The notes under the pieces were generated by a model, which was not told where the DNA came from, ran no database searches, and saw only the letters and a list, made by a program, of their open reading frames with translations. A program made the position numbers and the translations under genes. Shown here one piece after another: positions 12,561 to 50,790 of a DNA stretch of 64,000 nucleotides (positions within the stretch are counted from its first letter, which is position 1; each line of letters starts with the position of its first letter). Origin of the DNA: Candidatus Methanomethylophilaceae archaeon (GTDB lineage Archaea > Thermoplasmatota > Thermoplasmata > Methanomassiliicoccales > Methanomethylophilaceae); assembly GCA_050950505.1 (NCBI GenBank), contig JBMNHS010000001.1:512001-576000 (forward strand). Reading direction: 5' to 3'.

Positions 12561-12634
12561 CGGGCCTGAAGGGATTCGAACCCTTGGCCGTTCGATTAAG
12601 AGTCGAACGCTCTACCTAGCTGAGCTACAGGCCC
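12561..12634 (-). tRNA. tRNA-Lys (anticodon CTT), no intron, CCA not encoded
   Basis: Reverse complement GGGCCTG-TAGCTCAGCTAGGTAGAGC-G-TTCGA-CTCTTAA-TCGAA...GGTTCGAATCC...CAGGCCCG forms a cloverleaf. Confidence 0.96.
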
Positions 12635-19586: not shown

Positions 19587-21013
19587 TTACGATGAAGAAA
19601 AAGGAAAACTTCGGCGAGTGGTACAACGAGATAGTCGATACCGCGGAGTTGAGCGATAAAAGATACCCCATCAAGGGAATGAACGTATGGACGCCTTACG
19701 GCTGGAAAATCATGATGATGATCGATTCCTTCACCAGAAGGGAACTGAATGCCACGGGCCACGATGAAGTGAATTTTCCTCTGCTGATTCCCGAAACGGA
19801 ATTCAAGAAAGAAAAAGATCACATCAAAGGATTCGATTCCGAAGTTTATTGGGTAACCAAAGCCGGAGACAACGAACTTGACGTTCCTCTGGTCATCAGA
19901 CCCACTTCCGAAACCGCCATGTATCCCATGTTTTCACTCTGGGTGCGGTCCCATCAGGATCTGCCCCTGAAAATATTCCAAATCGTCAACACTTTCCGTT
20001 ATGAAACCAAGCAGACCCGTTCCTTCATAAGGGTCCGGGAGATTCACTTTTTCGAATCCCACACCTGCCACACGACGGAAGAGGACGCCCAACGTCAGAT
20101 TGAAGAAGACATAGTCATGCTGAAGAACATATCCAGAGAACTCTGTCTTCCCCATTTCCTTCTCGTGAGAACCGATTGGGACAAGTTCCCCGGAGCCCAC
20201 TACACCGTGGGAATCGACACCGTGATGCCTCATGGAAGAACTTTGCAGATCGGATCGATTCATCATTACAGAACCAATTTCTCCGTCCCTTACGACATAC
20301 AATACGAAGATCTGAACGGAGAACACAGATATGCCCACCAGACCACTTTCGGAATGAGCGAACGTCTTCTGGGGGCCGTCGTCGGAGTCCACGGGGATGA
20401 CAGCGGACTGATTCTTCCGCCGCCCATAGCGCCCTTCCAAGCGGTCATAATCCCGATAATATCCAAAAACAATCCGGAGGAAGTCCTTGATGTTTGCAGA
20501 ATGGTTACAGACATTCTGAGCAAAGACGGAATCAGGGTCAAACTGGACAACCGGAACCTGCGCCCCGGTGCGAAATACTACGATTGGGAGATGCGGGGCG
20601 TACCGCTGAGATTGGAAATAGGTGCCAGAGACGTAGAAAACAAACTGGTTTCCTTTGCAAGAAGAGACACCGGTGAAAAAGGGACCATGGATCTCAACGC
20701 AGTGTCCGCAGGCGCGAAACTGTTGCTGAATGATATTTCCGCGACTCTGTACCGCCGCGCGGCCGAAGTTCAGGAGTCCGCGGTCAGGGACATATCCGAT
20801 ATGTCCGAAGCCCCCGCGGAAAGTGATGAGACCAAGGATGATGTCATTCTGAGATTCGGTTGGTGCGGAAACGAGGACTGCGGTCACGGGTTCGAAGAAA
20901 CCACGGGATACAAGATTCTCGGAACCCCTTACGGCGCGGACGCCGTGAAATGCGAATGCATCGTTTGCGGAGCCCCCTCCGAAAAACAGGCTTACGCCGC
21001 TCACCCGATGTGA
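19583..21013 (+). CDS. proS: Prolyl-tRNA synthetase (archaeal/eukaryotic type)
   Basis: RPTSET, SHQDLPLK, FRYETK.TR.FIRVRE, C-terminal Zn site. Confidence 0.96.
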   Translation: MITMKKKENFGEWYNEIVDTAELSDKRYPIKGMNVWTPYGWKIMMMIDSFTRRELNATGHDEVNFPLLIPETEFKKEKDHIKGFDSEVYWVTKAGDNELDVPLVIRPTSETAMYPMFSLWVRSHQDLPLKIFQIVNTFRYETKQTRSFIRVREIHFFESHTCHTTEEDAQRQIEEDIVMLKNISRELCLPHFLLVRTDWDKFPGAHYTVGIDTVMPHGRTLQIGSIHHYRTNFSVPYDIQYEDLNGEHRYAHQTTFGMSERLLGAVVGVHGDDSGLILPPPIAPFQAVIIPIISKNNPEEVLDVCRMVTDILSKDGIRVKLDNRNLRPGAKYYDWEMRGVPLRLEIGARDVENKLVSFARRDTGEKGTMDLNAVSAGAKLLLNDISATLYRRAAEVQESAVRDISDMSEAPAESDETKDDVILRFGWCGNEDCGHGFEETTGYKILGTPYGADAVKCECIVCGAPSEKQAYAAHPM

Positions 21014-21018
21014 ATGCC

Positions 21019-21783
21019 ATGAAAGGATTCAACGAAGGGGAAACTGCTTTTCTCGAAGACGCAGGGGGTAAAAGATACTGGTTCAAGGTATCTTACAAAA
21101 TGATCAAAATTCCGTCTTTGGGAACCGTCGACGGCAAAAGGTTCGAAACCGCATATGACGGAAAAATCATGGAAATCGCCGATTCGGAATTCACGGTGTT
21201 CCGTCCCAAAGTGACCGAATTGATCGAATCCCTTGAAAGAGGGGCTCAGATAATCACTGTGAAAGACGCCGCCCAGATTCTGATCAACTGTGACGTGAAG
21301 AACGGAACGGAAGTCATTGAAGTGGGAGCAGGTTCCGGAGGACTTACCACCGCGCTGACGAATGCCGCAGCTCCGGACGGAAACGTTCTCACGGTCGAAC
21401 TCAAAGAGGAAAATGCAAAACGGGCGGGAAGGAATCTTGCCAGAACGGGATTGGACAAAAACTGGAGTTACGTAATCGGCGATGCGAAAGACGTGAAATT
21501 CGAAGGCATCGCGGACGTTCTGACTTTGGACATGCCCGACCCCTGGTTGGCTTTGGACAATCTCCTTCCGCACCTGAAATCCGGAGGTCGGATATGCATA
21601 TACGTTCCAAACGTGAACCAGTTGGAATCTTCCGTCATGGCATTGAGGGAAAGAGGATTTTCCCGCGTGCGGGCCTATGAAAACATCAATCGGGAAATGG
21701 AAGTCCATCCCGGCGGGGTAAGACCGTCCTTTGACACTCTGGGTCATACGGGATATCTCATATTCGGGCGGAAACGGGAATAA
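21019..21783 (+). CDS. trmI: tRNA (adenine-N1)-methyltransferase TrmI/Gcd14
   Basis: RGAQII..KD, EVGAGSG.LT, LDMPDPW, RP....GHTGYL. Confidence 0.9.
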   Translation: MKGFNEGETAFLEDAGGKRYWFKVSYKMIKIPSLGTVDGKRFETAYDGKIMEIADSEFTVFRPKVTELIESLERGAQIITVKDAAQILINCDVKNGTEVIEVGAGSGGLTTALTNAAAPDGNVLTVELKEENAKRAGRNLARTGLDKNWSYVIGDAKDVKFEGIADVLTLDMPDPWLALDNLLPHLKSGGRICIYVPNVNQLESSVMALRERGFSRVRAYENINREMEVHPGGVRPSFDTLGHTGYLIFGRKRE

Positions 21784-21831
21784 CGGGGTCCGATATAACT
21801 TATTAAACAATAATTCCTTTATCCGGTACAG

Positions 21832-21960
21832 ATGACAGTGGTCGGAACACGGATCCGGCCGAAAGGTGCGAACCTTCCGGAAGGACAAAATCCTTACGGA
21901 ACGGCGGAATGCAGCAATCGGTGTCCGGACAATCCCTGATTTCAGAACCGCTGTGAGATG
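21832..21960 (+). promoter_or_regulatory. Structured 5' leader of purL (candidate cis-regulatory RNA; contains 35-codon uORF 21832-21939)
   Basis: TATA-like CTTATTAAAC at 21799-21808; nested stems 21835-42/21947-54, 21851-62/21918-35; hairpins AAGGT-GCGA-ACCTT and AAGGA-CAAAA-TCCTT. Confidence 0.5.
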
Positions 21961-21965
21961 ATCAT

Positions 21966-24299
21966 ATGGCAAAAGAACTATTGGTCAAACGCGACGCTCC
22001 ATACGAGCTCTACGAAGTAAAACTTCTCGACGCAACCGACGAGGAAATGAAGAAGATATCCGACGACATGTCGTTGAATCTGTCTCTTGATGAGATGAAA
22101 GTCATAAAGGAATATTTTGCCAATGAAGGCCGCAATCCCGTTGACGTGGAACTGCAGTCTCTCGGTCAGGCATGGAGCGAGCATTGCTGTTACAAAAGTT
22201 CCAAAGCCATTCTGAAAGAATTCGTGTTCGGCATAGACCGTGACGATGTGCTCTCCCGGGGAGACGCCGGAGTCATGACCTTTGACGAAGAACACGGATA
22301 CGCGCTCAGAATCGAAAGCCACAACCACCCTTCCGCGATAGAACCCTACGGCGGAGCCGGGACCGGAGTGGGAGGAATTCTCAGGGACGTCATCTGCATG
22401 GGAGCCAAGCCCATAGGATTGGGGGATCCGCTGTGTTTCGGATACCCCGACAGGAAAGGAGAGCTTCCAGCAGGCGCGAAACATCCCAAAGAACTCATGA
22501 AAGGCGCCGTAGCCGGAATAAGGGACTACAGCAAAATCGTGGGTGTCCCCGCAATCACAGGAGGGATGTTCTTTGACGAACGTTACACAAACAACTGTCT
22601 CGTGAACGTCTCATGCATAGGATTTCTCAGACTGGAAAATCTTTTGAACAACTTTGCCGGAGGCCCCGGAGAAACAATGATTCTGATCGGCGGCAAAACC
22701 GGAAGAGACGGAATACACGGAGTGAACTTCTCCTCTCAGGAGTTGGACGAAGGCCTTTGTGAAAAAACCGCTCCTGTTCAGCAAGGCGATCCCGTGATCA
22801 AGAAAGCCGTAATGCAATCCTGTCTGGAAGTCAGTGACAAACATCTTGCCACCGGAATGAAGGATCTGGGCGGGGGAGGCCTCAGCTGTGTCGTGGGCGA
22901 AATGGCATTGGACGGAGGCTGCGGCGCGGACATCGATTTGGAAAAGGTTCCGCTTAAGGAACCCGGGCTCGCCCCCTGGGAGATATGGATTTCAGAATCC
23001 CAGGAAAGGATGATGTGTACCTGCAAGCCTGAAAATCTGGACGAGGTTCTTGAAATTTTCAAATCGTATGACGTGATTGCGGTTCCCGTCGGAGTCACCA
23101 ACGAATCAAAGCGCACCCGCATATTCTGGGAAGGCGAACAGATATTCGAAATGGATCAGAAATTCCTTACCACGGGTCCGATGTATCACAGACCGTACAC
23201 TCAACCCAAAGTTTCCACTATGGAAGAGGAACGCACGCCCCGTTTGCCGGATGACAGAAAAGTCATACTCAGACTGTTGTCAGACCCCAACGTCGCGTCA
23301 AAGGAATGGATAATCAATCAATATGACAATGAAAACGGCGAATCGACCGCCGTATCCTCCCTGGTGGGAGATCCCGATGCACCCGGTCCCGGCGATGCCA
23401 CGGTCATCAGACCCGTACCGGGAAGCACCAAGGGCTTGGCCGCCGCAATCGGCTGCAATCCCTGGTTCACCGAACTCGATCCGTACAACGGAGGAATGTC
23501 CTCCATGGACGAGGCCTGGCGGAACGTGGTGGCGGCGGGTGCGGTTCCGAACGCGATGACCGACTGTCTCAACTTCGGAAATCCGGAAAAACCCGACAGA
23601 CTCGGGATACTCAGAGAAGCCGTCCGCGGCATAGGAAAATTCGCAAGGGAACTGAACATACCCATACCTTCAGGGAATGTGAGCCTGTACAACGAATCGT
23701 CCGCAGGCGTGTCCGTGCTGCCGACGCCCATGATAATGTGCTGTGGCATAATCGATGACGCATCCAAAGCCGTAACCGCCGATTTCAAAGAACCGGACAA
23801 CAGAATTTACGTAATCGGCAAAACCAAGGAAGAGATGGGCGGATCTCTGCTGTACCGCGTGTTCGGAGGAAAACAGGGCAAGGTTCCCGGCGTCAGCACC
23901 AAGAACGTCAGGGATCTGACCGACAAGGTTCTGAAGGCCATGGACGAAGGACTGATAAAATCCTGCCATGACTGTTCCGACGGAGGTCTTGCGGTCGCGG
24001 TTGCGGAAATGTGCATATCCGGAAAAATGGGCGCCACGCTCGACCTCAGGACTCTGGAAGACGTTTCTCCCAGAAAGGCGCTTTATTCCGAAAGCAACAC
24101 CAGATGGATTGCGGAAGTATCCGAAAAGGACGCTCAACGGTTTGAAGAAATAATGAACGGTTCCGCTTACCGTATCGGAAAGACCGGCGGCAAATCTCTG
24201 AATCTGAGGGATTCCGGCACAATCATCGATTTGGAAGAACTGTACGAGGCCTGGAGCAAACCCATAGCGAAGATTATGGAAAGTTCCGATTCCGAATAA
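21966..24299 (+). CDS. purL: Phosphoribosylformylglycinamidine synthase subunit PurL
   Basis: WSEHC, ESHNHPSAIEP, GGILRD, ISESQERM, DCLNFGNPE, GNVSLYNE, HDCSDGG. Confidence 0.95.
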   Translation: MAKELLVKRDAPYELYEVKLLDATDEEMKKISDDMSLNLSLDEMKVIKEYFANEGRNPVDVELQSLGQAWSEHCCYKSSKAILKEFVFGIDRDDVLSRGDAGVMTFDEEHGYALRIESHNHPSAIEPYGGAGTGVGGILRDVICMGAKPIGLGDPLCFGYPDRKGELPAGAKHPKELMKGAVAGIRDYSKIVGVPAITGGMFFDERYTNNCLVNVSCIGFLRLENLLNNFAGGPGETMILIGGKTGRDGIHGVNFSSQELDEGLCEKTAPVQQGDPVIKKAVMQSCLEVSDKHLATGMKDLGGGGLSCVVGEMALDGGCGADIDLEKVPLKEPGLAPWEIWISESQERMMCTCKPENLDEVLEIFKSYDVIAVPVGVTNESKRTRIFWEGEQIFEMDQKFLTTGPMYHRPYTQPKVSTMEEERTPRLPDDRKVILRLLSDPNVASKEWIINQYDNENGESTAVSSLVGDPDAPGPGDATVIRPVPGSTKGLAAAIGCNPWFTELDPYNGGMSSMDEAWRNVVAAGAVPNAMTDCLNFGNPEKPDRLGILREAVRGIGKFARELNIPIPSGNVSLYNESSAGVSVLPTPMIMCCGIIDDASKAVTADFKEPDNRIYVIGKTKEEMGGSLLYRVFGGKQGKVPGVSTKNVRDLTDKVLKAMDEGLIKSCHDCSDGGLAVAVAEMCISGKMGATLDLRTLEDVSPRKALYSESNTRWIAEVSEKDAQRFEEIMNGSAYRIGKTGGKSLNLRDSGTIIDLEELYEAWSKPIAKIMESSDSE

Positions 24300-24328
24300 G
24301 ATCTCCGAAAAATCAAAACAACCAATTA

Positions 24329-24344
24329 CCCGGCGGAAGCCGGG
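24329..24344. terminator. GC hairpin between convergent purL and riboflavin kinase genes
   Basis: CCCGGC-GGAA-GCCGGG with A/T-rich flanks. Confidence 0.55.
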
Positions 24345-24399
24345 AATTTCTATTTATCAATAAATCAACGTATCTTCTTCGTAAATCACGGATTAACGT

Positions 24400-25056
24400 T
24401 CAGATTTCGATTCTGACTTCGACAGGATCTTTGTCCTTGAGGCTCAGAGTGCGTCTGAGATGGTATTGGCAAACGACTTCCACAATGTCGGAATAATGGG
24501 ATCTCTCGGGCATGACGATTGCACAGTCGATGTTCTTTATCTTTGCCTTGTGGGCGATTACGTTGCCGAAGGAACGTCCTTCTGCTTCGAATTCTCTGAT
24601 CAATTGTCCGGCGGAGCTTCTCAGAACATCAAGTTTTCCGAGATCCTCTTTGTCTACCGTAATGTTCAAAGTTCCTTCGAAAGGACGGAATCCAAGGGTC
24701 TTTTCGAACTGTTCGACGTACCGGGGCTGTGAAATATAGTATCCGCCCTGGCCCATGCCGGTTGTGATACGGCCTTTCAATGTCATGTGGTCCGTGAGTT
24801 CAAAAATTCTGCGGTATTCGTTGTATTCGTTCTTCAACCAGTTCACTCCGTTTTCCGTCAGCTTGATGCGCTGTCTTCTGGCACCGAGGTCCCGTACAAT
24901 ATATTTTCCGTCCAGAAGTTCCAAAATTCTTTTGGAAGCGGACTGCTGACTCATGTTCAGCGCATCCCCCAGTTCTCTGGAAGACACCGCTATGTAATCA
25001 TGCACACCGCCGAGCAAAGCGATTTTTTTCAGAGTAGAAGTATACTTTTCGTCCAC
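24400..25056 (-). CDS. ribK: HTH-fused CTP-dependent riboflavin kinase (RbkR/RibK)
   Basis: N-terminal wHTH (SSRELG...SQQSAS), GMGQGGYY, PFEGTLN, PERSHY. Confidence 0.9.
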   Translation of the reverse strand: MDEKYTSTLKKIALLGGVHDYIAVSSRELGDALNMSQQSASKRILELLDGKYIVRDLGARRQRIKLTENGVNWLKNEYNEYRRIFELTDHMTLKGRITTGMGQGGYYISQPRYVEQFEKTLGFRPFEGTLNITVDKEDLGKLDVLRSSAGQLIREFEAEGRSFGNVIAHKAKIKNIDCAIVMPERSHYSDIVEVVCQYHLRRTLSLKDKDPVEVRIEI

Positions 25057-50421: not shown

Positions 50422-50790
50422 TTTCGATTTCCTTCTGTTGTAGATGCCATAAAGGCGGTGAAAAGAGGAACGCATAGGCGCCTCTTTGACTGTGAATTAA
50501 AACATAACGGTGATGCTTTCTTCCGCCTAATATCTGACGGTATATTTAGTTTCCTTAATTAGGTCGAAATAGACGCTAATCATCAAAAAATGAGGTGTTT
50601 TTCAACCGCCGACGGTGTTTGGAGCCCGAATCTTTGCGTATGTTCCGTCGATTTCGGAATGAAACGCTGAAGTCAGGTTCTCTTCTGACAATTGACGCAT
50701 TACATATTCGTCAATCGATGGAAAAAATACGGCATTTGACTTGTGACAATCCGAAACTTATTAAACATAAAATGCCTAGCCGACTGTGGG

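Follow-up and report, generated by a model that had tools for sequence, protein, structure and literature searches.

The ~80-aa protein PurS is one subunit of the PurS/PurL/PurQ FGAM-synthetase complex. In the accessible text of Brown et al. (2011; PMC3261824), PurS is described as required in B. subtilis, all three genes are reported from most purine-making archaea, and archaeal purine loci are presented with patchy purS, a truncated purQ copy and gene decay. The locus studied here lies in the window, a stretch of 64,000 nucleotides from a Candidatus Methanomethylophilaceae archaeon (contig JBMNHS010000001.1, positions 512,001 to 576,000 of the forward strand; genome G000 of our set, 99.6% complete in 2 contigs), and all positions below are those of the window. 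The locus resembles the described archaeal variants of FGAM synthetase in its patchy purS and its gene decay. As far as the accessible text of that paper goes, the purS-less genomes in it carry an N-terminally extended or a large PurL, whereas the PurL of our genome is ordinary (777 aa vs 779 in relatives), and in our genome both purS and purQ are missing.

With regard to the DNA in front of purL, two other kinds of known system come close. Bacterial riboswitches of purine genes (purine, ZTP and PRPP/ykkC-type, as collected in Rfam) are likewise structured 5' leaders with a closing stem before a gene of purine biosynthesis. In contrast, the purL leader has no model match and no conserved core, it is derived from coding sequence, and an expression platform was not found in it. 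Stabiliser stem-loops at the 5' terminus exist in bacterial mRNAs, for example the hairpin in the ompA 5' UTR. The helix in the purL leader is likewise predicted to begin within a few nucleotides of the 5' end, and its pairing is conserved while the content of its loop is not. It differs from the ompA type in that it closes a variable interior of ~80 nt, has the two ends of a dead gene as its strands and lies in an archaeon, where any effect on stability is putative.

The first-pass annotation had described a structured leader of ~135 nt before purL and had read it as a candidate riboswitch or attenuator, or else as an independent small RNA. The leader and its closing stem have held up on comparison with relatives, whereas that reading of them has not. 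The evidence points to a leader of an ordinary kind, a gene relic serving as 5' leader, not to a new class of RNA. A false lead for archaeal riboswitches is thus removed, and the case is a caution that a decaying gene can out-fold every shuffle at the exact position of a riboswitch.

The purL leader and its relation to purS

The leader is preceded by a gene for a tRNA methyltransferase of the GCD14/TrmI type (20860..21783, + strand; Pfam PF08704, E 1.9e-30), which ends 16 nt 5' of the TATA box CTTATTAAAC (21799..21808, + strand), and is followed by purL (21966..24299, + strand), which encodes an intact small PurL, the FGAM synthetase subunit, with the Pfam domains AIRS_C (4.7e-54), AIRS (4.1e-40) and FGAR-AT linker (3.2e-17). 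The positions given in the first-pass annotation for the TATA-like box, the stem strands, the inner helix, the hairpins and the purL ATG at 21966 all agree with the sequence. The word CTTATTAAAC occurs twice in the window (21799-21808 and 50757-50766), with 0.06 matches expected; the second site probably belongs to a further promoter that uses this TATA variant. Over 21300-21980 or more, contigs from three independent DNA runs of different studies showed 0 differences, so that the leader is not an assembly artefact. The sequence of the window is present in metagenomes from landfill, anaerobic digesters, bioreactors and wastewater. A single RNA run gave 4 contigs on purL, which begin from 22005 onward, with none over the leader.

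To place the leader among relatives, we collected the purL loci from 41 genomes of the family, all of which carry purL (41/41), and read 260 nt upstream at each locus. An intact purS of the 79-aa type, ~240 nt long, stands directly before purL in 31 of the 34 loci counted (L031 was dropped as a duplicate of L001). It ends 2-5 nt before the purL ATG, at a conserved GTGAGATGA junction, and its product in the relatives reads MAVIEIRIELKKGVADPEG...NPVIQNYxVTVR up to the stop. The three loci without an intact purS are those of our genome and of the sister species G015 (88% complete), together with a second, divergently oriented purL copy in G017. Another sister species, G007 (76% complete), shares the short form, though its relic runs into a contig end. 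In these three lineages, i.e. our genome, G015 and G007, only ~120-130 nt are left where the relatives have purS.

In our genome this remainder (21832..21961, + strand) starts with ATGACAGTGGTC... and ends with ...ACCGCTGTGAGATGA. When it was aligned to purS from the closest relatives in which the gene is intact (G008, G003 and G012), ~70 nt matched the 5' end of the gene and ~60 nt the 3' end, with an alignment gap of ~110 nt between the kept ends. Recognisable purS codons number ~26 at the N-terminal side and ~16 at the C-terminal side, and the central ~40 are deleted. The similarity to intact purS reached a z of 3.7 in our genome and 7.6 in G015, and 0/60 shuffles came up to it in either case. 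The two ends in our genome are mutually out of frame: the frame opened by the ATG at 21832 stops at 21937-39, and the old stop is found at 21959-61. The relic of G015 still contains an in-frame ORF of 39 codons (MTVVEIGIRPKENAAGTKRQTNKRFSADPEIHDFEVTVR), in which the ancestral stop is kept, 4 nt before purL. Moreover, the interior pieces that survive differ among the three lineages, as expected of ongoing decay.

The distribution of the PurS family agrees in detail with that of the short form. PF02700 had no match at E<=0.01 in the six-frame translation of our genome. It is present in 13 of the 16 genomes of the genus, and the three without it are exactly the carriers of the short form. A BLASTN search with the 185-nt leader against 61 related genomes found it in G015 and G007 and nowhere else among them. 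When metagenomes were scanned for a promoter-plus-ATG pattern, 2 loci came up, of which one is identical to our genome and the other near-identical to G015; since both match the known relic types, they offer no new variants for covariation. In one metagenome run (X7), a low-depth contig switches at 21951 to ...CATGATTTCGAAGTCA, the 3' end of the relic type of G015 and G007, which means that both relic types co-occur in this sample.

From these comparisons we are highly confident that 21832-21961 is a pseudogene relic of purS. The relic occupies the place that purS has in relatives and stands behind the same promoter, it keeps the N-terminal MTVV..RI..K..PEG.N and the C-terminal NP.I....VTVR codons, and its stop codon falls within the usual GTGAGATGA junction before purL. 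Compared with the genuine gene (PF02700), it is 130 nt long vs ~240, its center is lost, its frame is shifted, it gives no HMM match, and no PurS is encoded.

The promoter appears to have outlived the gene. An 18-mer with the TATA box inside, CGATATAACTTATTAAAC, is identical in G015, and its 15-mer TATAACTTATTAAAC is identical in G007. Where relatives have an intact purS, a TATA-like box precedes its ATG by a similarly short distance, in G008 with nearly the same sequence, and the box at 21799-21808 can therefore be taken as the promoter of purS and of the former purS-purL(-purQ) operon. The transcript is predicted to start at ~21829-21832, ~25 nt after the TATA box, which is the old purS AUG itself or a position immediately 5' of it, so that purS would have been leaderless or nearly so. 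The 165 nt from the TATA box to purL are explained by the former purS gene, which occupied that space. Most likely purL now has a leader of ~135 nt that is transcribed from this box.

The start of purL has a signal of its own. A Shine-Dalgarno-like GAGATGATC (21955..21963, + strand), which has the old purS stop TGA (21959-61) inside it, matches the complement of the 16S 3' end of the genome, ...GGATCACCTCCT, at 8 of 9 positions, and 21955-21968 is identical in G015 at all 14 positions (14/14). We picture the history of the locus as follows. In the common ancestor of our genome and its two sisters, the center of purS would have been lost and purQ deleted, and the purS promoter kept. Since that time purL would probably be transcribed with the relic of ~130 nt as 5' leader and probably translated from its own Shine-Dalgarno-like site, while the relic interior would decay freely, with different deletions in each lineage. 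The locus would then be a dated case in which a coding gene has become a 5' leader and selection has apparently preserved one helix.

Fold of the leader and its closing helix

The minimum-energy fold of 21825-21968 on the + strand was predicted at -54.3 kcal/mol, and 200 dinucleotide shuffles of the same stretch gave -39.2 +/- 3.9 kcal/mol (z -3.85); a separate shuffle set for this leader gave z -3.75. None of the 200 shuffles was as good (0/200). The minus strand of the leader folds less well (z -2.2, 7/200 shuffles as good). Set against real sequence of the genome, the fold is remarkable without being extreme, for 1.1% of 2142 GC-matched random 144-nt windows fold as well or better. The proposed elements lie where they were placed, namely the closing stem with its strands ACAGTGGT at 21835-42 and ACCGCTGT at 21947-54, the inner helix strand GGATCCGGCCGA at 21851-62, and the hairpin AAGGT-GCGA-ACCTT at 21863-76. 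The hairpin CCG..AAGGA-CAAAA-TCCTT..CGG was also correctly positioned at 21877-99, with one G and one A omitted from its letters. The minimum-energy fold contains the closing stem, the inner helix and the 21877-99 hairpin, and it does not use the GNRA hairpin. As for conservation of the structure in the sister species, the closing helix is kept and the interior hairpins are not. That the leader of our genome as a whole folds so strongly is largely incidental.

The closing helix joins a 5' strand (21833..21853, + strand, alignment columns 9-29) to a 3' strand (21933..21956, + strand, alignment columns 109-132), and has 19 pairs. G015 keeps 18 of these 19 pairs despite 9 differing nucleotides, and G007 keeps all that are visible (10/10). 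The differences between our genome and G015 are transitions in 8 of the 9 cases, and one pair has changed on both sides (U-A to C-G); at four-fold sites of purL, 43% of the differences are transitions (33/76). In simulations of 9 random substitutions, at least 18 pairs were left in 0.08%, 0.2% and 0.9% of the runs at transition fractions of 0.33, 0.5 and 0.67, respectively. It should be kept in mind that the structure used in this test was derived from our genome itself, and that effectively two lineages enter it, as the two ends of the relic hardly differ between G007 and G015. We also computed the end-to-end duplex between the first 34 and the last 42 nt, which amounts to -27.6 kcal/mol in our genome and -19.5 in G015. 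The same duplex in the 31 intact purS genes has a mean of -10.6 kcal/mol (sd 3.0) and a minimum of -18.0. Since none of the intact genes has comparable end-to-end pairing (0/31), the closing helix is a derived feature.

One helix of the relic is therefore a candidate for selection, and its comparative record suggests that it has apparently been kept in this way. Alternatively, the relic may be purely neutral: the helix would have arisen by chance in the common ancestor, it would persist only because the lineages share descent and their ends change slowly, and the ribosome-binding site of purL would be the only functional part of the leader. Several results favor this alternative. Duplexes formed between the 5' strand of one lineage and the 3' strand of another are as stable as the cognate ones (-25 vs -19.5 to -27.6), so that lineage-specific co-adaptation is not apparent. 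In the 3' strand of the helix, 20/30 positions are identical, which is not significantly above neutral sites (P 0.25). Under a model with transitions only, at least 18 pairs were left in 11% of the simulations (P 0.11). About 1% of random genome windows fold as well, as noted above, and the stem part ACAGT/ACTGT corresponds to Thr-Val codons at both ends of purS, already present in G003. On the other hand, 18 of 19 pairs have survived 9 substitutions where the simulated mean is ~13, which has a P of ~0.001-0.002 at the measured transition fraction of 0.43, and end-to-end pairing of this order is seen in none of the 31 intact genes. Weighing these points, we lean slightly towards a functional closing helix, and regard a wholly neutral relic as a serious possibility that falls somewhat short of an even chance.

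If the closing helix is functional, its position hints at what it may do. It would begin 1-3 nt from the predicted 5' end, and would thus bury the leaderless AUG of the relic together with the 5' end. Helices at the 5' terminus protect mRNAs, and Euryarchaeota have the 5'-to-3' exonuclease RNase J. The helix may silence the junk ORF of the relic, or shield the untranslated leader from 5'-to-3' decay, or both, and the Shine-Dalgarno-like site of purL, 3' of the helix, would stay free. Taken together, we consider it quite likely that the purS relic is now the 5' leader of purL without any ligand sensing, and slightly more likely than not that its helix acts as a non-sensing cis element.

Other readings of the leader

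The relic may still be translated. Its ATG, with the 8 nt that follow, is the same in our genome, G015 and G007, and the frame is open for 35 codons in our genome (MTVVGTRIRPKGANLPEGQN..., with a TGA stop; 21832..21939, + strand, ending 26 nt 5' of the purL ATG), for 39 codons in G015 and for at least 37 in G007. An open frame in three lineages points to possible ongoing translation, which is at odds with a silencing helix. These observations, together with the ancestral stop at which the G015 frame ends just before purL, would suit a functional mini-protein or a regulatory uORF, with a leaderless start at 21832, that drives or tunes the translation of purL by termination-reinitiation. However, the relic peptides of our genome, G015 and G007 have only ~11 residues in common, past which they are unrelated, and in our genome a frameshift separates the frame from the old stop. 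Neither the 35-aa nor the 39-aa relic ORF matched any Pfam family at E<=10 (0 families), the lengths of the open frames are individually unremarkable (shuffle fractions of 0.19 in our genome, 0.08 in G015 and 0.06 in G007), and the conserved helix would bury the start codon. We consider a functional relic peptide or uORF improbable.

A new riboswitch or attenuator, as the first-pass annotation had suggested, that would sense a metabolite of the purine pathway and control purL is a very improbable explanation. The strong fold in our genome, the site before a purine gene and the conserved closing stem all speak for it, and so does an alternative pairing of the 5' segment, in which a local hairpin (columns 15-22/30-37) competes with the long-range helix. 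This local hairpin of 8 bp is 100% paired in all three lineages, but 120/500 shuffles equal it, so that it is not significant alone. Against a riboswitch stands first of all the origin of the leader from a protein-coding gene. Moreover, the part that would have to form the aptamer, the relic interior (21854..21932, + strand) with the proposed inner helix and hairpins, is conserved neither in sequence nor in length nor in pairing; it is unalignable and was deleted differently in the three lineages. Between our genome and G015, 21 of 50 aligned columns are identical, with 10 gap columns in addition. The interior helices 2-4 keep 8/20 pairs in G015 and 11/24 in G007, and slid controls pair at 29-44%. 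Since the interior is unconserved and its pairing is close to that of the slid controls, a conserved aptamer is ruled out.

The folds of the sisters tell the same story. The relic of G015 has a z of -1.6, with 13/200 shuffles as good, the available part of G007 has a z of -0.08, and an RNAalifold consensus of the three relics kept only 12 pairs. Pairing of the Shine-Dalgarno region is found in the fold of our genome only, where it involves bases probably upstream of the transcript start, and it is lost in G015. The search for known RNA families was likewise negative. At the gathering threshold, the single Rfam match in the whole window was a tRNA at 12561-12634, with none in the leader. At E<=10, the region 21700-22050 gave 3 noise matches, the best with 18.3 bits vs a threshold of 50 and on the minus strand. 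This best match was to a C/D-box snoRNA, which we rejected because inspection by eye revealed a C-box-like AUGAUCA and one CUGA, with neither a C' nor a D box. No terminator-like site was found in 21400-22300 by a scan that uses a bacterial-type pattern. The unrelated leaders of ~95 nt in a second clade without purS and purQ, which is described below, are also without conserved structure (consensus of -7.8 kcal/mol, covariation term +1.4).

Finally, it is scarcely credible that one of the two strands encodes a small RNA of its own, or that the leader is an artefact of assembly or binning: beyond the weak Rfam noise matches nothing favors it, neither an own promoter nor a terminator was found for a small RNA, the minus strand folds worse, and an artefact is contradicted by the same sequence in contigs of three independent studies and by a short form common to three species.

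purL without purS and purQ

The loss at this locus is not confined to purS. In G012 and G008 the gene order is purS-purL-purQ-riboflavin kinase, with a purQ of ~780 nt, whereas our genome has 100 nt (24300..24399) between purL and the gene for a CTP-dependent riboflavin kinase (24400..25056, - strand; 218-aa product; PF01982, E 5.9e-40). This kinase, which is the conserved right-hand neighbor of purQ in relatives, has 78% identity to its counterpart in G012. The site of the purQ loss contains the hairpin CCCGGC-GGAA-GCCGGG (24329-24344) followed by a T-rich run, and a similar hairpin with a T-rich run is also found after purL in G015. PurQ (PF13507) is absent from our genome, G015 and G007, and present in G012 and G008. 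Thus, among the genes for the PurS/smPurL/PurQ complex, the three short-form genomes have purL only; purF and purM are present in our genome. Downstream of purL in G015 (L080, G015:C17:1-1900) there is a methyltransferase-like ORF of 224 aa, which has no tblastn match in our genome, indicating that the purL-distal neighborhood has been rearranged differently in the two species.

The retained purL seems to be in use. Comparison of our genome with G015 over 469 codons gave a dN of 0.092 and a dS of 1.00, i.e. a dN/dS of ~0.09, and this low ratio between two genomes without purS and purQ indicates strong purifying selection on purL since the loss. In the PurL tree, the branches of our genome and of G015 are ~1.7x as long as that of G008 since their split (0.31-0.33 vs 0.18), and such long branches are compatible with relaxed constraints at the interface with PurS and PurQ.

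The same combination has arisen elsewhere in the family. Among 149 genomes of the order with at least 90% completeness, PurQ was found in 145; those without it are our genome, G027 and G111 (both of one genus) and G071. PurS is absent also in G027, G111, G071, G065 and G076 (0/5), of which G065 and G076 belong to the same genus as G027. All five have purL (5/5); four of the frames are full-length (770-788 aa), and the fifth is interrupted where its contig ends. In this second clade purL (L081-L085) lies behind a conserved ...ACATATTAAA... box and the leader of ~95 nt mentioned above. These leaders (G027, G065, G076, G111 and G071) have no detectable similarity to purS (z -1.5 to 1.7). A tree was built from 36 PurL rows, without L021, L031, L051 and L083, which are short, duplicate or paralogous. 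In it the PurLs without purS form two distinct clades, each with full support and on a long stem branch (0.2 and 0.8). At least two losses of PurS and PurQ must therefore have taken place within Methanomethylophilaceae. The genus assigned to G071 differs from that of the other four, but its PurL clusters with theirs.

That purL was kept while PurS and PurQ disappeared suggests that FGAM is synthesized from free ammonia in these archaea. As a rule, the synthase domains of glutamine amidotransferases can work with free ammonia, which makes a stand-alone, ammonia-using PurL plausible, if unproven. In 2004 Hoskins and colleagues reportedly observed that Bacillus PurL alone uses NH3. The landfill, digester and wastewater habitats in which the sequence occurs are probably rich in ammonium as a rule. 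We tentatively propose a change of mechanism, in which PurL alone would make FGAM from ammonia in the two lineages without PurQ and PurS, and a relic leader with a selected helix would keep purL expressed; as a whole, this proposal is a little less probable than its negation. The genomic evidence indicates that a small PurL can persist under constraint once PurS and PurQ are gone, in at least two independent cases, and an active stand-alone PurL using ammonia, if true, would be an exception to the requirement for PurS. In the literature as far as it was accessible, no paper was found on the loss of purS or purQ in Methanomassiliicoccales, and none on ammonia-dependent activity of small PurL alone (including PMC7124931, PMC3815217 and PMC13013826, in their accessible parts).

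The second purL copy of G017 (L051, G017:C1, ~1355825-1356409), which was counted above among the loci without an intact purS, is a case of another kind. It has an open frame of 826 aa and no purS of its own, and it is oriented divergently next to the purS-purL operon of G017, with 68% identity over the N-terminal 200 aa.
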